Of a stretch of DNA of 64,000 nucleotides, positions 5,433 to 46,982 are shown piece by piece (the first letter of the stretch is position 1; each line of letters opens with the position of its first letter). The notes beneath the pieces were generated by a model, which was not told the DNA's origin, searched no databases, and saw only the letters and a list, made by a program, of their open reading frames with translations. The stretch comes from Chloroflexi bacterium UBA5189. Its GTDB lineage: Bacteria; Chloroflexota; Limnocylindria; Limnocylindrales; CSP1-4. The translations under genes and the position numbers were made by a program. The DNA lies in contig DHWF01000031.1 in NCBI GenBank assembly GCA_002413045.1, forward strand, positions 149,241 to 213,240, read 5' to 3'.

Positions 5433-5983
5433 GCCGATCGCTCCTGGAGGGCGGTCGGTCGGTCTGCGCCCATCGCTGAGCGCATCGCGGCCAGACCGCG
5501 GTTGAGCCGGGACTTCGCAGTCCCGACCGGGATGTCGAGGATCTCGGCGAGCTCGGTGAGGGGCAGGCCGAGGTAGAAGTGCAGGACGAGGACGGCGCGC
5601 TGGTCCACCGGGAGGCGGGCCAGCGCGCGGCCCATCTGGTCGCGGTCAACGACCGCGTTGGAAAAGTCGGTCGAGGTGTCTGCGTCTTCATCGGGCGCCA
5701 CGTGGAGCTCGACGAGATCGCGGCGCCGAACCTTCCGAACCCACCGATAGCAGGCCCGGACGGTCAGCCGGTTCAGCCAGGCATCCCACGCGTCGGCGTC
5801 CCGAAGCGCTCGAATATCTCGCCAGGCGAGCACGAGTGCCTCCTGGACCGCGTCCTGAGCGCGATCCAGGTCACGAAGGATGAGTCGGGCGACGGCGTAC
5901 AGCCGGGGATACGAGCCTCTCACCAGGACGGAGAAGGCTTCGTGATCGCCCGCTTGTGCTCGTTCGACGAGCTGTCGCTGCAT
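5429..5983 (-). CDS. ECF-family RNA polymerase sigma-70 factor
   Basis: Region 2 DAVQEALVLAWRDIRALRD and region 4 HTH LPLTELAEILDIPVGTAKSRLNRG. 184 aa. Confidence 0.9.
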   Translation of the reverse strand: MQRQLVERAQAGDHEAFSVLVRGSYPRLYAVARLILRDLDRAQDAVQEALVLAWRDIRALRDADAWDAWLNRLTVRACYRWVRKVRRRDLVELHVAPDEDADTSTDFSNAVVDRDQMGRALARLPVDQRAVLVLHFYLGLPLTELAEILDIPVGTAKSRLNRGLAAMRSAMGADRPTALQERSA

Positions 5984-6129
5984 TCCGCCACCTGTACCGC
6001 GCGGCCTGGATGGCTGCGCTCATAACGGTACGGTTCCAGGGAGGGCGAAACGGTTCCATGAATCCCGCGCCGGCGGCTGCGGACGCGGCGCGCTCGATGG
6101 CGCGGCGGGGGTTCCTCGTTCGGCGCTGC

Positions 6130-39698: not shown

Positions 39699-40663
39699 GT
39701 CGCGGCCTCGGAGGCGAGATTCAGCACGGCCTCGGCCGTCCGAACATCGGTCACGAGGACATTGAGGAAGTGGCCGCGCAGGGCGCCGAGGATCGGCACA
39801 ACCTTGGCCGAGCCCTCCGCGACCCCGATCGCGAGCGAGACACTCGAAAGCCCGCGGGCATCGAAGGCGACGGTCCGCTGCCGCAGCGAGTCGCCGACGA
39901 GCCGGCCGTCGATCGCGAACGGCGCGATGAGCACCTCGCCGACGGCCTTGCCGGCGCTGATCTCCGCCATCGCCGCGCGCCCGACGCTGGCCTCGCTCCA
40001 GCTCGGGCCGCCGATCCCGAACAGCGCGACGTCGAGCCGCGCCCACAGGTCGATCACGCTGCGAACACCCGCGTGCGCGCACAGCGCATCACGCACGTTC
40101 GCGTCATCGAGCAGACCGGGCGCGTGCAGCGCCTGCACGCTGGCCCCGAAGGCACCGCCGATCCGGCGATATGGCTCGTCTCCGGCACCGGCTCGCCAGA
40201 ACCCGCCGCACAGCGGCACGACGGTGGCATCCACCTGCGCCCCGGCCCCGGCTCCGGCCGCGCCGACGTTGGCTCCGGCACCCGTGCCGAGCTCGTCCGC
40301 CACGGCGGACACTGATGCCCCATCCCCGATGCCGACCACCATCCCGTCGCGAATCTCGCTTCGGAGCACCTCGCCGGCAAGACGCCCGACGCGCCGTCGC
40401 GTCAGCTCGGGCGGGCCATCGAGGGTCGGCGCCACGTGGACCGCACGCAGCCCGAACCGCGCTCGTAGCGCCTCACCCGCGGACGACTCGATCGCGCTCC
40501 TGTCGACGACCCGGATTTCGACGACGCCCTGGGCCCGCGCCTCCTTGAGCAGCCGCGACACCTGCGGCCGCGTGACCCCGACCAGCGCCGCGATCGCCTC
40601 CTGGGTCTCGCCGAGCTCGTAATACAGCCGGCTCACGCGAACCAGCGTGGCGAAGTCGCTCAT
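39695..40663 (-). CDS. SorC/DeoR-type sugar-binding transcriptional regulator
   Basis: N-terminal HTH LYYELGETQEAIAALVGVTRPQVSRLLKEAR followed by a sugar-phosphate-binding-like domain. Confidence 0.85.
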   Translation of the reverse strand: MSDFATLVRVSRLYYELGETQEAIAALVGVTRPQVSRLLKEARAQGVVEIRVVDRSAIESSAGEALRARFGLRAVHVAPTLDGPPELTRRRVGRLAGEVLRSEIRDGMVVGIGDGASVSAVADELGTGAGANVGAAGAGAGAQVDATVVPLCGGFWRAGAGDEPYRRIGGAFGASVQALHAPGLLDDANVRDALCAHAGVRSVIDLWARLDVALFGIGGPSWSEASVGRAAMAEISAGKAVGEVLIAPFAIDGRLVGDSLRQRTVAFDARGLSSVSLAIGVAEGSAKVVPILGALRGHFLNVLVTDVRTAEAVLNLASEAAT

Positions 40664-40753
40664 CGCCAGCGCGCGGCTAGCGCGGCCACGGCGGCCGGCT
40701 CAGCAGTCCTCCGGCGAGGCATCCGCGGTCGCACGAACCCGCCCCGGCACGTT

Positions 40754-40786
40754 TGTTCTGAACAGATGTGCACGCGATCATGATCG
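40754..40786. promoter_or_regulatory. Two palindromes upstream of the SorC regulator gene (candidate operators)
   Basis: TGTTC-T-GAACA at 40754-40764 and perfect CGATCATGATCG at 40775-40786, about 90-120 nt upstream of start 40663. Confidence 0.3.
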
Positions 40787-40835
40787 GCCGACGGGACCCA
40801 GGCGTCAACCGTCCGGCGAACCACGGCGGCCGACA

Positions 40836-41047
40836 TCAGAGGCGCGCGTAATCGGCCGAGATGTTCCCTACGGATACGAACGCGACCACCTTCGGCCCCA
40901 CGACCGCCAGATTCCAACCCTGAACACCCTCGGGGCGCCGAATCCCGTCGATCCTGTATCCCCATGGGGACAAGTTCGACGTGGTCGGACGCCATCGCAG
41001 GCTCGAAGCGCCAAACGTCGTCGAGTTCGTAGCCCAGCGGAACATTC
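40836..41047 (-). repeat. Copy 1 of a diverged ~210-bp repeat; contains an intact 69-codon ORF (40836-41045)
   Basis: The minus strand reads GAATGTTCCGCTGGGCTACGAACTCGACGA..ACAGGATCGACGGGAT..GTCGCGTTCGTATCC..AGGGAACATCT, colinear with 44861-45068 on the plus strand. ORF is MFRWATNSTTFGASS...ADYARL. Confidence 0.7.
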
Positions 41048-41060
41048 CGCCGGGCGTTGG

Positions 41061-41120
41061 CTCAGTGGGCGGCGCGTCGTCTTAGTGGGCGGCGCGGGAG
41101 CTCAGTGGGCGGCGGCTCCG
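41061..41120. repeat. Three tandem 20-bp repeats, core CT(C/T)AGTGGGCGGCG
   Basis: Units start at 41061, 41081 and 41101. On the minus strand each reads ..GCC GCC CAC T(G/A)A, that is Ala-Ala-His-stop. The 20-bp period puts the three stops in three different frames. Confidence 0.85.
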
Positions 41121-41506
41121 TAGCCGTCGATGGTGACCTCGACGAGCGGGCTGTCGGTGAACATCACGTCGGGGTCGCGGCGCCAGGCCTTGGCAACCTG
41201 CTCGATGACCTGGCGGCGGTGGACCGGCTCGGTGACCTCGGTCGCGATTGCCGGCAGGTCCGCGTGGACGCCCTGCTTCAGGTGGAACGTGAACGACGGG
41301 TTGGCGCGCATGTTGTGCAGCCAGGCGCGGGTCCGCTCGGCGCTGGGCATGCCGCTGATGTACAGCCGCCCGCCGAAGTTGAAGAAGACGATCTCGATGC
41401 GGCGCGGCTCGCCGGACTTCCGCCCGATGGTCGTGATGTCGATCGTGTGGCCCTGGTCGAGCGCCTTGGCGATCGCGGGGTCGAGCTTGGTCGGGGTGGT
41501 GGTCAT
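41102..41506 (-). CDS. DUF385 / deazaflavin (F420)-dependent nitroreductase-family protein
   Basis: ATG 41506 (MTTTPTKL). ITTIGRKSGEPRRIEIVFFNFGGRLYISG...WLHNMRANP. Confidence 0.75.
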   Translation of the reverse strand: MTTTPTKLDPAIAKALDQGHTIDITTIGRKSGEPRRIEIVFFNFGGRLYISGMPSAERTRAWLHNMRANPSFTFHLKQGVHADLPAIATEVTEPVHRRQVIEQVAKAWRRDPDVMFTDSPLVEVTIDGYGAAAH

Positions 41507-41806
41507 GAGAAGGGTCGAGGCTCCGAACGTTGGGTCGGGCGAGTCGCGGCGAACCACCGCGAACTGATCGTTGACGACGCAACGATCTTCGCACGCCTAC
41601 CCGCTCGGCGCAAGTGCAGTTGGTCGTCTGGGTGACCGAGTTCGACGAGGTTCGACACGCCGCGCGATGAAGGTCGTCGATCTTGATCGTCCGGGCGCTC
41701 TCATTCGACCAACTTCGACGGCATCCGACGCCGCTTGGGCCGCTACCTCGTCGAATTCGTCCATCGCGGCGACCAACGCGCCGATCTCGAGCCGGCCGGC
41801 CCGCGG

Positions 41807-42373
41807 CTAGACGCGCTTGCCCTGGGCCCGGAGCTCCGCCTTGTAGGCCCGCTTGCCGGCCTGGTACGACGCGAGCGCCTCGGGCGAGTCGACATCACCC
41901 AGGGTGTGCTGCTTCGGCATGACATCGGCCATGCCTGGCAGGTCGACGCCGAAGCGTTTGCCGAGGATCGCCAGGATCGTTCGGGCCTTCATCTCGCCGA
42001 TCCCGGGCAGCTCGAGCAGCCGCGCCTGGAGGTCCCTGCCGTCCTTCGCCTCGCGCCAGATCCGCGACGCATCGCCGTCGTACTTCTCCGCGATGGCAGC
42101 GCACAGTGCGGCGACCTTGCCGGCCATCGAGCCGGGGAAGCGGTGGAGCGCCGGGCGCTCGCGGAAGATGCGATCGAGCTCGGCCGGGTCGGTTGCGGCA
42201 ATCCGGCGGGCGTCGAGATGGCCGAGCCGGCGTTGGAGCTCCCACGGGCCGGAGAACGCCTTCTGGACGGTGACCTGCTGGTCGAGCGCGAAGCCGATGA
42301 GGAGCGCGAGCGGGTCGGTCGAGAGGAGCTCGTCGGCGTCATCGTTGCCGGTGAATGGAAGTCGCGCGGTCAT
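41807..42373 (-). CDS. HhH-GPD-type base-excision DNA repair family protein
   Basis: ATG 42373 (MTARLPFTGN). LALLIGFALDQQV...LLELPGIGEMKARTILAILG, a helix-hairpin-helix. Confidence 0.75.
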   Translation of the reverse strand: MTARLPFTGNDDADELLSTDPLALLIGFALDQQVTVQKAFSGPWELQRRLGHLDARRIAATDPAELDRIFRERPALHRFPGSMAGKVAALCAAIAEKYDGDASRIWREAKDGRDLQARLLELPGIGEMKARTILAILGKRFGVDLPGMADVMPKQHTLGDVDSPEALASYQAGKRAYKAELRAQGKRV

Positions 42374-42479
42374 CGGTGGGAGCCTCCGGTCGAGGGTGCG
42401 CGCGGGCGCGCGGAAGGCCGCGATCGTAGCGCTTGCAACGGCTCTGCAAGGTTCCGGGCTTGCGCTTCGGCGGTAGGAT

Positions 42480-42795
42480 TCGGGCAACGGAGGTCTGCTC
42501 GATGACGGATCGACGCCGCTCACCGGCTCCAGAGTCCGGACGCAGGAACGGGACCCACGTGGCCCCGAACCTCGCGAGCACCGCGGACGCATCCCGAGGC
42601 GCGAGCAACCTCGCCACCGTGCCCCGCGCGGGCAACATCAGCTCCGACACCCGCGCCGGCCGCCTCGGGTGATCCGGGCCGGGGGCCGCCCGCCGGCGAA
42701 GGGGAGCCGCGCGACGACCAAGCACTCGGATCACCAACTGCAGAACGTGAATGCAACGGAAGACCCGCGCTCGCCGCGAGCGCGGGTCTGTTTAT
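42480..42795 (+). ncRNA. Candidate structured noncoding RNA of unknown class (boundaries and strand tentative)
   Basis: ~440-bp gap with no credible ORF. TAGGAT (TANNNT) at 42474-79. Long-range perfect 9-bp pairing GGTGATCCG (42668-76) / CGGATCACC (42727-35). Ends in a 13-bp perfect hairpin plus GUUUAU. Confidence 0.2.
42761..42795. terminator. Intrinsic terminator, usable in both directions
   Basis: AGACCCGCGCTCG (42761-73), loop CCG, CGAGCGCGGGTCT (42777-89), a perfect 13-bp stem. Followed by GTTTAT on the plus strand. Lies 22 nt downstream of the minus-strand stop at 42812. Confidence 0.6.
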
Positions 42796-42811
42796 GCCGG
42801 GTCGGCCCCGC

Positions 42812-43219
42812 CTATTCGAGGACGATCCGCACGCCGTCGCCATCGGAATCCTCGACGTCGAGGATCGGGCCGTGGGTGCCCGTCGTGACCGCCTCCTCCA
42901 CGTCGGCGATCTGCTCCCTGGAAAGCCCTGGCACGCGCGAGAGCGCGAACCTCCCGAGCGAGATCGGGATGCGCAGGTCGACGACGCGTCGCCCGTTCTC
43001 GCGAACCTCGATCCGGGCCCATCGGGGCGGCGTGCCGCCGGTCGTCGGCGCGGTCGGGGTCGTCGGCATGGCGGCCGTCGGCCCATCGTCGGCGGCGACG
43101 CCTGCCCACGCGGGTTGCTTGCCCCGGCTGTCGAGGGCGTCGAGGATCGGCGCCGCCTCCTCGGCCGTGAGCCGGCCCTCTGCGACGAGCTTCAGGACGC
43201 GGTCAAGCGGATCGGTCAT
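42812..43219 (-). CDS. Small acidic protein with N-terminal SHOCT-like helix
   Basis: ATGA overlap with the upstream gene. VLKLVAEGRLTAEEAAPILDAL, Pro/Thr linker, then a beta-rich C-terminal domain. Confidence 0.65.
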   Translation of the reverse strand: MTDPLDRVLKLVAEGRLTAEEAAPILDALDSRGKQPAWAGVAADDGPTAAMPTTPTAPTTGGTPPRWARIEVRENGRRVVDLRIPISLGRFALSRVPGLSREQIADVEEAVTTGTHGPILDVEDSDGDGVRIVLE

Positions 43220-44241
43220 CGGAGCACCGCGTCAAGCGAGCCGAGCTGATCGGTCGCCTCGGCGACGCTGATCTCGCCGCGCTCGAGCGCCTTGAGGATC
43301 TCGAGTCGCGCAGCGTCCAGGTCGGCGGACGCGGCAGACGACGCCGAACCGGCAGACGCCGCGGTAGCGCCGCCGGGCGCCGCCGCTGCGCCGGGCGCCG
43401 GTGGGACGGCGGGCGCAGCTGGTGGCGTCGGCGGGGCAACAGTCTCGGGTGCTGCATCGCGCGGTTCGACCACGTGGAAATCTCCTGAAACCGACTGGAA
43501 TGTCAGGGTCGGGCCGGGTCGGCCGATGGTCAGGATCTTTCGACCGGGTGCCGACTCGCGCTTGCTCGGCAGGTCGCTGTTCAGGTCGCCAGTGACCGAC
43601 TGCGCCTCGATCCGGAAGCCGGACCGGCCGACGAGGGTCACGTCGCCGCTGATCGAGCGCAGGCTGAACGGGCCATTGCCATCGAGCTGGGCGTCGAGCC
43701 AGATGTCGCCGGACGTGGTCTGCAGCTCGAGACGGCGCAGCCGCGGCACGCGCACGTGCATGTCGCCGGAGATCGACTTGGCGGACAGCTCGAGCGGCGC
43801 CTGGCCCTCGATCTCGACGTCGCCCGACACGGATTCGATGTCGACCGGCCCGGCGAGGCGCTCGAACGTCAGGTCGCCCGAGGCACTCCGGAAGCGCTTG
43901 CTGCCGCTCAGGTCCGAGGCGGCGACCTCCGCGCTCGCCGACTCGACGGACACGGTCGCGCCGTGGGGCACCTCGACCGCGATCTCCGGGGAAGCGCCGC
44001 GCGAGATCGACAGGATGCCGAGGCCGAACTTCTCGATCTGGCGCAGCTCCACGAAGTCAGCGCCGGTGCTGACGTGGAACAGCGAGTCGAGGCTGCGGTC
44101 GCCGTCGAGGGAGCGAACGCGGATCCGGTCGCCCTCGACGCCGTGGATCCGGATCTCGCCGGATGCCTGGCGGAGCGTGAACCGGCCGCGCGGGCCGACC
44201 TGGTGATCGATCGTGGTGACGTGCTCGTTGGTCTGGGTCAT
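43216..44241 (-). CDS. DUF4097 (putative adhesin/beta-helix repeat) protein with C-terminal SHOCT-like helix
   Basis: ATGA overlaps at both ends. Seven (S/T)GD(L/V/I/M/F) repeat units (ASGDLTF, VSGDVEI, ISGDMHV, TSGDIWL, ISGDVTL, VTGDLNS, VSGDFHV). Pro/Ala linker. LEILKALERGEISVAEATDQL. Confidence 0.8.
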   Translation of the reverse strand: MTQTNEHVTTIDHQVGPRGRFTLRQASGEIRIHGVEGDRIRVRSLDGDRSLDSLFHVSTGADFVELRQIEKFGLGILSISRGASPEIAVEVPHGATVSVESASAEVAASDLSGSKRFRSASGDLTFERLAGPVDIESVSGDVEIEGQAPLELSAKSISGDMHVRVPRLRRLELQTTSGDIWLDAQLDGNGPFSLRSISGDVTLVGRSGFRIEAQSVTGDLNSDLPSKRESAPGRKILTIGRPGPTLTFQSVSGDFHVVEPRDAAPETVAPPTPPAAPAVPPAPGAAAAPGGATAASAGSASSAASADLDAARLEILKALERGEISVAEATDQLGSLDAVLR

Positions 44242-44690
44242 CGATCGGTCCTTCCGAGATTCCGGATTGCGATCGCGGCCTCGTCGGCGGTGATCTCCTT
44301 GCGAGCGAGCCGCTCGAGGATTCCCTGGCGGGTCGCGGCGGCGTCCGCGGCGCTGGTGGCCGTGGCGCTTGCCACGGCTGATGCTGCGGCTGCGTCCTCG
44401 GCGGCCTCGTCGCTGTCCGCGCGAGGCCCGAAGCCGAGTGCCCGTACGAGGGCCTCGACGCGCGACCGGACGGTCGGATACGAGATCCCGAGCTCGCGCT
44501 CCATGTCGCGCAGGTTGCCGCGGGAGCGCAGGAAGCTCTCGAGCAGGAGCAGCTGCTCCCGCGTGAGCCGCCCGAACCGCCCGACACTGAACTCGCCCTC
44601 GAGGGTCGTGCCGCACGAGCGGCAGTTGAGGCGCGTGACGGTCAGCTCGCTCGAGCAGACGGGGCAGGTGGAGATGACGTCGTGAGGCAT
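44238..44690 (-). CDS. DUF2089 zinc-ribbon plus HTH protein with C-terminal SHOCT-like helix
   Basis: CPVCSSELTVTRLNCRSCGT zinc ribbon. RGNLRDMERELGISYPTVRSRVEAL HTH. ILERLARKEITADEAAIAIRNL. Confidence 0.85.
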   Translation of the reverse strand: MPHDVISTCPVCSSELTVTRLNCRSCGTTLEGEFSVGRFGRLTREQLLLLESFLRSRGNLRDMERELGISYPTVRSRVEALVRALGFGPRADSDEAAEDAAAASAVASATATSAADAAATRQGILERLARKEITADEAAIAIRNLGRTDR

Positions 44691-44715
44691 GCGGTTCCTT
44701 TCGCTGATTGGCTAG

Positions 44716-44745
44716 ACTATCGCACGCGCATTTTCACTTTGTCAA
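44716..44745 (-). promoter_or_regulatory. Sigma-70-like promoter for the DUF2089 operon
   Basis: Minus strand has TTGACA (44745-44740), an 18-nt spacer, then GATAGT (44721-44716). AAGGAA ribosome-binding site before ATG 44690. Locally AT-rich. Confidence 0.4.
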
Positions 44746-44860
44746 GCTACAGTTGCACTATTCGCATGTCACGTTGCGGAACGGCCTCGCGCGGCACCGG
44801 TTCGTCTCCGGACACATTGGTGGAACCAGGCCCGGGGCCGCGCGGCCCGTCCGGGGCTGC

Positions 44861-45068
44861 GAATGTTCCGGTGGGCTACAAACTCGACGAGCTTGCGGCT
44901 TCCCGAGGCCCCGCCCCCGCTCAAGCTGGGCGATTTGTTCCGCGTGGCGACAGGATCGACGAGGATGCGCCGGAATCGGGACCGTCGGTAGCCCTCAGAT
45001 TGCCGCGCGCCACGCGATGTCGTCGCGTTTGTATCCCAGGGCAACAATCTGCGGCTCGGCGGAGAGCC
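44861..45068 (+). repeat. Copy 2 of the diverged ~210-bp repeat (ORF broken)
   Basis: GAATGTTCCGGTGGGCTACAAACTCGACGA..ACAGGATCGACGAGGAT..GTCGCGTTTGTATCC..AGGGCAACAATCT. Same first 9 codons MFRWATNST, then frame lost, stop after 42 codons. Confidence 0.7.
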
Positions 45069-45072
45069 GGAG

Positions 45073-45588
45073 CTAGGCGACGGGGGTGGATGCCTCCTGG
45101 GCGAGGAGGCGAGCACCGGGGAAGAAGTGGCCCAGCATCAGCGTCGAGGTCACGCGATCGACGGCGTACCGGTTCACGTGGATGTACGGCCGCGCGGCGG
45201 TCGGGGCGCTGTCGTGGGTCACGAGCTCGATCGTGACGTCGCTCAGGCCGACGAACGAGCCGCTCGGGCGGGCGATGGCGCGGGCGGGGTCGAAGCCGGG
45301 GTGCGTCGCGAGCCGGCCGGAGACGCGATACGGCCCGACGTCGAGCGAAACCGAGTACCAGGCCATGTGGATCTTGAGCTCCGGCTCGGCCGTGACGATG
45401 AGCAGGATGTCGTCGGGGGCGACCGTGACGCTGCCGCGATGTGCAGCGCGGGACCCGTCGAGGGGATACCAGCGGACGTCCTCGATCGTGAACGGGCCGG
45501 CCAGATCCGGGCCGTCGTTGGTCAGCGGGATGCGGCTTGACGTCCCGACGAGCACCCCCGCCGGCGTGAAGATCTCGACCGCTGCCAC
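45073..45588 (-). CDS. Hypothetical protein
   Basis: 171-aa ORF with balanced, beta-rich composition. No motif recognised. Divergent from the GreA-fusion gene. Confidence 0.6.
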   Translation of the reverse strand: MAAVEIFTPAGVLVGTSSRIPLTNDGPDLAGPFTIEDVRWYPLDGSRAAHRGSVTVAPDDILLIVTAEPELKIHMAWYSVSLDVGPYRVSGRLATHPGFDPARAIARPSGSFVGLSDVTIELVTHDSAPTAARPYIHVNRYAVDRVTSTLMLGHFFPGARLLAQEASTPVA

Positions 45589-45686
45589 GACTCCCCCCGA
45601 AGCGTTCCCGCAGGATGTCGCGCGGGCGCGCGAACGCGAACCACCCGCCGGTACCGACTTGCAGGTCCGGTGGTACCGTCCGGCCG

Positions 45687-46982
45687 GTGACTCCCACCCA
45701 CCCCGGCGCGGCCGATCTCATTCGATCGATCGGCCTCCTTGCCGACGGCCCCGTTCGCTGGGGCGCCACGGTCCCCGCGCGGCGAGGCGGCGTCTACGTC
45801 GTGGAGCTCGGGGTGCCGCTGCCGCAGGCGCCCGTCGAGATGACCCGCGTCGGCAAGTGGCTCGAGACGGTCCCCGGGCTCCGCCTCGACGGCGAACCCC
45901 CGACGTCGAAGGCACTCCATGCCCGGCTCCTGTCCCTGTGGTGGCCGGATGCGACGGTGCTGTACGCCGGTGCCACCGCCGGCTCGATCGGCGGCCGGGT
46001 CGCCGCGCTCCTGGCGCACGTACCCGGCGAGCGCCAGCCGCACGCGGACGGCCAGTGGCTCCACCTCCTGCGCAACCTCGATGGGATCGGCCTCCGGATC
46101 TGGTGGGCCGAGACGAAGGCGCCCGAGGAATCGCTCGACGCCCTGTTCGATGCCTTCGGCGCGGCCACCGGCCTCCAGCCCATGCCCGGCCGGCCCGCCG
46201 GCGCCCTCGCGCTGCCCTGGGCCAACACCCGCCGCCCCACCGGTGAGCGGCAGGCGCATGGGATCGTTGGCGCCATCCTGCCCGAGGCGCCGAAGGCTCC
46301 CGAGCCGCCGCGACACGTGGTCGAGGTAGCGCCCGGGGACGCGGAGGGCGCGTGGGCCGAGGATCGCGGCGACGTCACGACCCGACGCGGGCCAAGCGGC
46401 GCGTCGCCCGCGCGGACACGTTCAACACGCCCTGCAGCCCGGCCGGCCCCGGGTCCGCAGCGCGCCCCGGCCGTCGCCCGGTCGTCCACCGGTGCTCGGG
46501 TCGTCCGCGGCTCGCGCGCCGCCGCGCCGGAGCCGATCCAGCTGTCCAAGGGTGCCCTCGACCGGATGACCACGGAGCTGGACGAGCTGACGCGCGTCAA
46601 GCGCCGCGAGGTGGTCGCCCGCATCAAGTCCGCGCGCGAGCACGGCGATCTCAAGGAGAACGCGGAGTACCACGCGGCGCGCGAGGAGCAGTCGTTCCTG
46701 GAGGGCCGGGTGCAGGCCCTGGAGGACCGCATTCGGCGCGCCGTCGTCGTTGACGAGGTCGCCACGGGCAAGGTCATCATCGGCTCGAAGGTCATCGTCG
46801 AGATCGGCGGCGACGAGCTCGAGTACACGATCGTCGGCAGCGCGGAGGCGGATCCGGCGAAGGGTCGGCTGAGCATGGCCTCGCCGGTCGGTGCGGCGCT
46901 CCTCGGGGCCGTCGCCGGCGCCGAGGTCGACGTTCGAACGCCGCGCGGCGCGGTTCGCTACAAGGTGCTCTCGGTCGATTAG
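45687..46982 (+). CDS. greA: GreA-type transcript-cleavage factor domain fused to an N-terminal GIY-YIG-like domain through an Arg/Pro/Ala-rich linker
   Basis: C-terminal 155 aa is canonical GreA (ARIKSAREHGDLKENAEYHAAREEQSFLEGR...GKVIIGSKV...GRLSMASPVGAALLG). One uninterrupted frame from 45615. N-terminal GVYVVE...VLYAGATAGSIGGRVAALLAH. Start GTG 45687 or 45615. Confidence 0.7.
   Translation: MTPTHPGAADLIRSIGLLADGPVRWGATVPARRGGVYVVELGVPLPQAPVEMTRVGKWLETVPGLRLDGEPPTSKALHARLLSLWWPDATVLYAGATAGSIGGRVAALLAHVPGERQPHADGQWLHLLRNLDGIGLRIWWAETKAPEESLDALFDAFGAATGLQPMPGRPAGALALPWANTRRPTGERQAHGIVGAILPEAPKAPEPPRHVVEVAPGDAEGAWAEDRGDVTTRRGPSGASPARTRSTRPAARPAPGPQRAPAVARSSTGARVVRGSRAAAPEPIQLSKGALDRMTTELDELTRVKRREVVARIKSAREHGDLKENAEYHAAREEQSFLEGRVQALEDRIRRAVVVDEVATGKVIIGSKVIVEIGGDELEYTIVGSAEADPAKGRLSMASPVGAALLGAVAGAEVDVRTPRGAVRYKVLSVD

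Follow-up and report, generated by a model that had tools for sequence, protein, structure and literature searches.

The 64,000-nucleotide stretch of contig DHWF01000031.1 from Chloroflexi bacterium UBA5189 (hereafter the window) carries two full copies and one degenerate copy of what is apparently a previously undescribed family of DNA elements of about 183 bp, which are tripartite, palindromic and helically phased and occur in Limnocylindria-type bacteria. The two full copies lie in opposite orientation 3.8 kb apart, and an earlier note had taken them for an inverted repeat pair enclosing a gene island. The pair is genuine but is ordinary as a bracket, since the family is a dispersed one and two of its members chance to lie in adjacent intergenic regions. 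Each copy is built from three short modules, the outer arms M1 and M3 and the central palindrome M2. The spacers between them drift in sequence and change in length by whole helical turns, which leads us to place the function of the element at the level of double-stranded DNA, probably as a protein-bound loop. As to what binds it, the evidence is split: we tentatively read the family as old, non-autonomous transposon ends, and a protein-binding array selected by the host is a possible, somewhat less favoured explanation with the same looped mechanism.

A local alignment of the reverse complement of 40830–41060 with 44850–45072 scores 57, whereas 500 dinucleotide shuffles score 18.9 ± 2.5 and at most 33 (z = 15). 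This comparison with shuffled sequence, which the earlier note had proposed, bears out its claim that the minus strand of 40836–41047 and the plus strand of 44861–45068 are diverged homologues, and the conserved blocks that it listed recur in the same order in a MAFFT alignment of the copy 1 minus strand with the copy 2 plus strand. A repeat search of the window gives inverted arms at 41018–41047 and 44861–44890 (30 nt, 93%) and a second pair, colinear with the first, at 40862–40889 and 45019–45046 (28 nt, 79%). The homology thus stands; the limits originally drawn for it do not, the true unit being 40856–41050 and 44858–45052. Each copy is bounded by inverted repeats of its own. From TGTTCC to GGAACA or GCAACA both copies measure 183 bp, both lie 22–55 nt past a stop codon, and the 25-nt arm motif TGTTCCNNNGGNNTACNAACNCGAC is found four times in the window (40862, 41044, 44864 and 45046) where 0.01 occurrences would be expected by chance. 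The copies and their modules are as follows, with scores from an nhmmer profile made from 12 copies of the family.

Element copy 1: 40856–41050, minus strand; 183 bp from TGTTCC (41044) to GGAACA (40862), plus 3–6 bp of extended inverted repeat; between the stop codon (41102) of an F420H2-reductase-like gene and a sorC-type promoter; profile score 105.6 bits forward versus 65.8 reverse.
Copy 1, module M1 (outer arm): 41017–41047, minus strand; GAATGTTCCGCTGGGCTACGAACTCGACGAC.
Copy 1, module M2 (central palindrome): 40946–40981, minus strand; GTCGAAC-TTGTCCCCATGGGGATACAGG-ATCGACG, in which TGTCCC begins 72 nt past the start of M1.
Copy 1, module M3 (outer arm, inverse of M1): 40859–40889, minus strand; GTGGTCGCGTTCGTATCCGTAGGGAACATCT.
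Element copy 2: 44858–45052, plus strand; 183 bp from TGTTCC (44864) to GCAACA (45046); inverted relative to copy 1; between the stop codon (45073) of a 171-aa gene and the DUF2089 promoter; profile score 108.6 bits versus 45.6 in the other orientation.
Copy 2, module M1: 44861–44891, plus strand; GAATGTTCCGGTGGGCTACAAACTCGACGAG.
Copy 2, module M2: 44929–44963, plus strand; GGCGAT-TTGTTCCGCGTGGCGACAGG-ATCGACGAG, with TGTTCC at 44936, 72 nt past the start of M1.
Copy 2, module M3: 45019–45049, plus strand; GTCGTCGCGTTTGTATCCCAGGGCAACAATC.
Degenerate third copy: about 41619–41777, minus strand; an arm pair of 33 nt (79%), GGTCGCCGCGATGGACGAATTCGACGAGGT and ACCTCGTCGAACTCGGTCACCCAGACGACC, representing a subfamily; profile E = 6e-4 over 41634–41765.

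The third copy lies between the HhH-GPD and F420H2-reductase genes and hence inside the supposed island. Adjoining copy 1, a 20-bp unit is repeated 2.8 times at 41049–41114; through it the F420H2-reductase-like gene has its stop-codon end in triplicate (three occurrences of CGCCGCCCACT[G/A]A, minus strand), and relatives that lack copy 1 have different ends to this gene.

Across the family the terminal inverted repeat is about 30 bp long with the consensus TGTTCCnnnnGGmTACGAACTCGACGAG. M1 as a whole follows GAATGTTCCGCTGGGmTACGAACTCGACGAG, M3 is its inverse, and M2 is the palindrome CTCGTCGAT-TTGTTCCGnnnGGnGACAGG-ATCGACGAG. In the modal form spacer S1 (M1 to M2) is about 39 nt and spacer S2 (M2 to M3) about 60 nt, and the octamer TCGACGAG or its complement CTCGTCGA occurs four times per element in the order > < > <. 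Terminal inverted arms of 25–31 nt are present in all 13 full copies, and element size ranges from 172 to 204 bp. Every copy scores about 40 bits higher against the profile in one orientation than in the other; the element therefore has polarity.

Relatives of the window copies were sought with the exact arm pattern in one genome per species. Nine of the 20 stretches returned have a second arm, inverted, 155–204 bp away, and all nine come from metagenome-assembled genomes (MAGs) named 'Chloroflexi', 'Limnocylindrales' or 'Dormiibacterota'; the other 11 are single arm matches from taxa with no relation to these, and chance alone would give about as many. The same pattern found only one more true copy in a metagenome scan (L031; loci are cited by such handles where they need to be told apart) and none in viral contigs, and a BLAST search against plasmids and phages gave nothing meaningful. 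The nhmmer profile additionally recovers diverged copies: a second one in each of L018 and L019, and the one at 41634–41765 of the window. In total about 20 further copies were seen in Limnocylindria-type MAGs, always in intergenic DNA and in either orientation relative to the neighbouring genes. Exact arm matches fall in one to three contigs per MAG. All copies are only 56–72% alike and non-orthologous pairs 56–70% identical, no pair is near-identical, and divergence within a genome equals that between genomes. Counts of short motifs in the window itself are confounded by coding sequence. One element, at L026 689–962 downstream of uvrB, has one more arm of M1 type, which lies 82 bp outward of the first.

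The enclosed segment is not an island. Orthologous loci were fetched with the DUF4097 protein as anchor and comprise ten contigs at 91, 89 (three contigs), 86, 83, 81 (three contigs) and 69% protein identity, the closest named relatives being Chloroflexota and Candidatus Limnocylindrales MAGs. The gene order GreA–171 aa–DUF2089–DUF4097–SHOCT–HhH–F420H2 reductase–SorC–FGGY, and the orientation of these genes, is identical in all ten, and none has the segment inverted. The site of copy 1 is filled in the window and in L032, is empty in L033 and L038 (a 114-bp gap) and holds a degenerate remnant of about 95 bp in L036. The site of copy 2 holds an element in the window, L038, L039 and L040 and a degenerate one in L041, and it is empty in L042 and L036; unrelated sequence takes it up in L032, L033 and L034. 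In the empty site of L042 the stop codon is followed by 18 nt and then by the conserved promoter region. The third copy is common to the window and L034, is reduced to a solo arm in L033 and is absent from L032 and L036, so that solo arms and eroded copies also exist. The repeats come and go while the gene order stays, and the island reading is therefore refuted. Two homologous units of about 190 bp, inverted and 3.8 kb apart, are what had made them look like the ends of an old insertion or inversion, or like a recombination substrate that could invert the enclosed genes. However, each repeat is gained and lost independently of the other, a third copy lies within the segment, and relatives lacking the repeats keep the same gene order with no synteny break, an outcome that the earlier note had itself set against such an origin. 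We give this explanation next to no credence. The four long gaps that it reported (40664–41101, 41507–41806, 42374–42811 and 44691–45072) are present as described; in this compact genome such gaps are hot spots of turnover and not the edges of an island. Promoter-like sites are recognizable upstream of sorC (TTGACG-17-GATCAT) and of DUF2089 (TTGACA-18-GATAGT), both outside the elements and conserved where the element is missing.

The distances between modules are what point to looped DNA. M2 starts 72 nt after the start of M1 at six sites, 82–83 nt in four copies (three sites), 91–93 nt in two and 104 nt in one; from M2 to the end of M3 there are 78, 89, 99–100, 110–111 or 121 nt; and the inner-arm distance, eroded copies included, is 47, 108–110, 129–130, 137–141, 149–150 or 161 nt. 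In the degenerate third copy of the window it is 110 nt, three helical turns below the modal 140. When periods from 6 to 16 bp were scanned on these three measures, the peaks fell at 10.5, 11.0 and 10.25 bp, with mean resultant lengths R of 0.87–0.96. V-tests, which count only departures from the modal class, gave p≈0.0015 for each, and Monte Carlo sampling gave p = 3e-4 to 1e-3. In the modal form the TCGACGAG octamers are centred at 24, 65, 97 and 159, leaving gaps of 41.5, 31 and 62.5 bp, or 4, 3 and 6 turns, and in the length variants the readable octamer spacings are 0.05 to 0.3 turn off whole turns. The spacers carry no comparable periodicity in their sequence, and a scan of base composition inside the elements gave only a faint signal. 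Several sites thus stand in helical register, with a period of 10.25–11 bp (p≈1e-3). Periodicity of this kind is a known mark of DNA that loops between transposon ends, operators or recombination sites held by proteins (PMC3464196), and it is classically taken to mean that proteins at different sites have to face one side of a short loop. Tolerance of helical steps is known for IS50, IS1, the lac and ara operators and the Hin invertasome, and the natural size distribution of the internal eliminated sequences (IESs) of Paramecium has been read in the same way (PMC3464196, which in its passage on this point cites Goryshin 1994 for IS50). Length steps of whole turns therefore place the function of the element on the DNA duplex, and a looped-DNA mechanism, which both the transposase and the host-array explanations would use, is likely.

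The evidence supports neither a peptide nor a structured RNA. The two open reading frames (ORFs) described previously do exist, with 69 codons at 40836–41045 (minus strand) and 42 codons at 44863–44991 (plus strand), and the suggestion that they are a pair of small-peptide genes fails: neither has a Pfam match or a homologue candidate, the 69-aa ORF shares no words with any of 5.8 billion proteins, and indels between orthologous copies, including some of 1 nt, disrupt the reading frame. Such frame-breaking indels had been noticed between the two window copies and taken to argue for a decayed paralogue or a noncoding element; here they recur between orthologues, and the repeats are noncoding. 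ORFs that run through element copies nevertheless generate spurious genes or N-terminal extensions (L018 1–270, L031 700–948 and L023 1798–2200), whose peptides MFR(W/T)ATN(S/A)T and VEFV(A/S)Q(R/Q)N may mislead gene callers. A structured RNA or transcribed long hairpin, with a closing stem of about 30 bp and a central hairpin, read through from the upstream gene, is improbable, and so is its acting, as ERIC (enterobacterial repetitive intergenic consensus) and REP (repetitive extragenic palindromic) sequences do, as an orientation-independent terminator, 3' stabilizer or RNase III target. The position of both window copies just past a stop codon would suit such a role, as would the pairing of the arms in every copy and the predicted fold of copy 1 (−98 kcal/mol, z = −3.6), but the folding of copy 2 reaches only z = −1.2 and −1.05. 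Covariation in the central stem is weak, 7/500 and 15/500 shuffles reaching the observed values, and a level of 7/500 can arise without structure; in the arm helix it is at shuffle level (223/500 column shuffles). RNAalifold recovers the arm helix only and, when applied to eight copies of identical architecture, leaves both spacers unstructured and returns an unfavourable covariation term of +2.9. The alternative pairings of M1 with the left half of M2 and of the right half of M2 with M3 were also considered and show no covariation above shuffles. Across 12 copies neither strand is preferred, whether by folding energy (6 versus 6) or by G–U pairs (77 versus 70). No Rfam family matches the window at gathering thresholds, and at E ≤ 5 the region 40400–45400 yields just two chance snoRNA-like matches, both outside the modules. 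The earlier proposal of a small-RNA gene pair accordingly lacks a family, a strand bias and covariation. Steps of 10.5 nt in single spacers, moreover, have no rationale in RNA.

For the protein partner, the reading that we favour, tentatively and at somewhat short of even weight, is that the family derives from transposon ends as an old, non-autonomous element of low copy number, comparable to MITEs (miniature inverted-repeat transposable elements), and is bound by a transposase-type enzyme. The conserved modules would act within duplex DNA, where a sequence-specific protein, probably an oligomer, may bind them on one face of the helix and draw the two ends to each other by closing a tight loop of some 140 bp; the spacers would be free to drift and to change in length by whole turns only. 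The protein would most likely be a transposase-type enzyme supplied in trans, and the element would occupy 'safe' positions between genes, after a stop codon and ahead of the following promoter, where it could be gained, lost and eroded over time. Protein binding, the synapsis of the ends and the identity of the protein as a transposase are all three inferred. MITEs are defined by small size, generally less than 200 bp, the lack of a transposase gene and terminal inverted repeats (PMC3184786), and the present elements have this size, carry no transposase gene, end in inverted repeats, lie between genes in either orientation and leave filled, empty and eroded orthologous sites. The TG...CA termini and the internal same-sense copy of an arm are reminiscent of the multi-site ends of DDE transposons such as Mu, Tn7 and IS21.

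Several observations weigh against a transposon origin. The flanks of 13 copies show no target-site duplication, the inverted repeat instead extending outward (CCGAA/TTCGG), and filled sites, compared with the empty site of L042, carry filler to either side of the core that varies and is not homologous, with neither a duplication nor a clean insertion. The only insertion sequences (ISs) in the fetched DNA, an IS3 in L033 and an IS1380-like element in L026, have unrelated ends; searches of viral, plasmid and phage collections turned up no partner, and no paired arms 1–3 kb apart occur among the loci examined. Copy number is low, no copies are near-identical and no recent burst is seen. At the copy 2 site the window, L038, L039 and L040 all keep the modules, a length of 182–184 bp, the position of M2 (its centre roughly 102 nt from the distal and 80.5 nt from the proximal end) and the orientation, while their interiors align no better than shuffles and the spacers and flanks are close to random; the DNA around the locus, as measured for L032, L033, L034 and L036 against L001 (window 34238–54690), is 81–90% identical. 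A dead MITE should decay uniformly, and the persistence of the modules at this site points to a constraint in place. Likewise, copy 1 of the window and its counterpart in L032 are 94% identical in M1, 78% in M2 and 76% in M3 and only 52–57% in the spacers; of four other intergenic regions compared between the window and L032, three are 94% identical and the fourth 85%.

These last observations speak for a protein-binding array selected by the host, an architectural or insulator element or a looped set of operators, which we consider possible, though with less conviction than a transposon origin. A DNA-binding oligomer of the host, whether regulator, nucleoid-associated protein or enzyme of the gyrase type, would sit on the phased modules, between the end of one gene and the promoter that follows. 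From there it could stop read-through, fix the local topology or tune the promoter, and its binding would be like that of gyrase and integration host factor (IHF) to REP sequences and BIMEs (bacterial interspersed mosaic elements) in enterobacteria. The helical phasing of all the modules, the low copy number and the want of a target-site duplication or any sign of recent transposition accord with it, as does the recurrent placement upstream of promoters, 48 nt from the sorC −35 and about 113 nt from the DUF2089 −35. Neighbouring genes, named by reading ORF translations, lean towards stress and repair: uvrB/uvrA, an HspR-type regulator with Lon, a DnaJ-domain protein, pirin, a PIN toxin pair and DUF2089. 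Yet the close relatives L033, L038, L042 and L036 do without the element at these same promoters, and it stands in both orientations and marks no coherent regulon; in the L011/L022 pair the modules (83%) are no better conserved than the spacers (85%), the eroded copies and solo arms resemble decay, and no candidate binding protein is linked to the copies. An invertible DNA switch, in which a site-specific recombinase would pair the arms and flip the interior of about 130 bp, is very improbable. In its favour, segments of 150–200 bp with flanking inverted repeats do lie upstream of genes here, helical phasing is also expected for the assembly of an invertasome (PMC3464196), and the window copy bears an apparent reverse-complement similarity to that of L038. 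A flip between L001 and L038 was considered on account of this higher score and was ruled out by the shared position of M2: the score comes from the palindromy of the element itself, and the off-centre position of M2 is equal in the four orthologues. Each orthologous site examined shows a single orientation, in agreement with the profile; no promoter-like site lies within the element, the variable tetranucleotides of the two arms do not match and no recombinase gene is nearby. The earlier note had likewise seen neither a transposase nor a recombinase, and none is present in the bracketed segment or among the called genes of L001, the annotated part of the window (34238–54690).

Several described systems come close to the family. 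Bacterial MITEs such as Nezha, Chunjie, Correia and ERIC-type elements (PMC3184786) are also shorter than 200 bp, with terminal inverted repeats around a core, and are noncoding, intergenic, predicted to form a stable hairpin and found at filled and empty orthologous sites. Unlike them, the present element lacks flanking direct repeats, has extra variable filler at its filled sites, has no IS with matching ends among those found and occurs in few, deeply diverged copies per genome; its central palindrome, phased internal motifs and modules that persist while the spacers diverge also set it apart. The IESs of Paramecium and the laboratory helical-twist series of IS50 and IS1 mini-transposons, lac and ara loops and the Hin invertasome share with it length steps of about 10–10.5 bp between protein-bound ends, which are read as the need for torsional alignment in a short DNA loop (PMC3464196). 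IESs are, however, eukaryotic, number tens of thousands and have a known domesticated transposase, as opposed to about 20 bacterial copies here.

The REP, BIME and REPIN (REP doublet) sequences of proteobacteria are mosaics whose palindromic units alternate in orientation and are joined by linkers of set sizes; they are bound by gyrase and IHF and are mobilized by a REP-associated tyrosine transposase (RAYT). Their unit is an imperfect palindrome of 20–40 nt headed by GTAG, a RAYT gene accompanies them and they reach tens to hundreds of copies. The present element resembles them as a mosaic of conserved units (> < > <) joined by less conserved linkers of discrete lengths, placed after gene ends in either orientation, for which selfish and host roles are both possible. 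It differs in that its units are not strong self-hairpins, the internal dyad of the arms (GTTC...GAAC) is weak, GTAG lacks conservation and is present just as GTAGCC/GTATCC inside the arm, copies are few per genome, the loci examined contain no RAYT gene and the lineage is Chloroflexota; by dyad, GTAG and copy number it does not fit the REP or REPIN pattern. The ends of the multi-site DDE transposons Mu (L1/L2–R1), Tn7 and IS21 likewise have TG...CA termini and, besides a terminal binding site, a second same-sense site about 70–100 bp inside one end, and the TTC-N10-CGAA spacing of the arm is like that of the MuA site consensus, a short resemblance of sequence that could be due to chance; in contrast to these systems, the element has neither a 5-bp duplication nor a transposase gene. 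LexA/Cheo boxes, HAIR, CIRCE, parS, loxP, attC and ECF (extracytoplasmic function sigma factor) −35 sites were also considered and seem unfit in spacing or sequence.

Other features were noticed in the window and in the fetched loci. The IS1380-like element of L026 has a DDE transposase gene (PF13701) at 1176–2504, adjoining the family member downstream of uvrB, and its ends differ from those of the latter. The IS3-family insertion of L033 (18904–20170) ends in TGGACTTGACC..., which the family does not share. The DUF2089 operon has a near-consensus promoter, TTGACA-18-(TG)GATAGT (44716–44775, minus strand), preceded by a block ATGCGAATAGTGCAAC that is kept in all relatives examined and may be an operator for the DUF2089 zinc-ribbon/helix-turn-helix protein. 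In some relatives the slot between the 171-aa gene and DUF2089 holds a second, unrelated variable block of about 200–270 bp (L032 9191–9460, L034 2230–2480 and, beside the element, L039 about 5800–6010); it is rich in GATCGAT, CGATCAATCGTCGACCGAACG and CTCCTTCGTCCGACGATCG motifs and may be another repeat family or an RNA. Tandem GCCTCGTTCCGGCCACGCGGGCG-like and GCCCCCGAGTGCGCGCCTCGTTCCGG-like units lie in the gap between the HhH and F420H2-reductase genes of L034 (about 5700–5960), upstream of its degenerate copy of the element.

The gap at 42374–42811 (438 bp) is 94% identical to L032 and thus more conserved than the flanking genes. It contains, at 42503–42673 on the plus strand, a 56-aa ORF (MTDRRRSPAPESGRRNGTHVAPNL...) whose length of 56 aa is kept in L033 and L034 and whose substitutions fall preferentially in third codon positions; it is followed at about 42760–42795 (plus strand) by a strong hairpin and T-run resembling an intrinsic terminator. 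Neither Pfam nor NCBIfam has a family for this ORF, which is probably a genuine small gene whose transcription runs against that of its neighbours. A GreA/GreB-domain protein of 455 aa is encoded at 45615–46982 (plus strand) with its Gre domains at residues 309–454; its N-terminal part of about 300 aa has no Pfam match, and the architecture is kept in relatives (422–455 aa).

For annotation, the family means that conserved arms can create false ORFs and N-terminal extensions such as MFRWATNST and VEFVAQRNI. It also supplies a concrete target in the uncultured Limnocylindria that are abundant in soil and freshwater, namely the protein that would bind TGTTCCnnnnGGmTACGAACTCGACGAG. The length changes that are tolerated indicate action as protein-bound, looped double-stranded DNA rather than as RNA, a property that can rarely be read from sequence alone in small palindromic intergenic repeats, common as these are. 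It is also conceivable, if unlikely, that the element is maintained by the host or domesticated, with a dedicated oligomer gripping four to six phased motifs and closing a DNA loop of some 140 bp in the interval from the end of a gene to the following promoter. Were this so, the family would constitute a natural 'helical-twist experiment' in bacteria, in which the spacers have been randomized and only length changes of whole turns survive, and it would represent an insulator or topological element of a kind new to bacteria, or else the substrate of a hitherto undescribed precise-excision system comparable to the elimination of IESs in ciliates.

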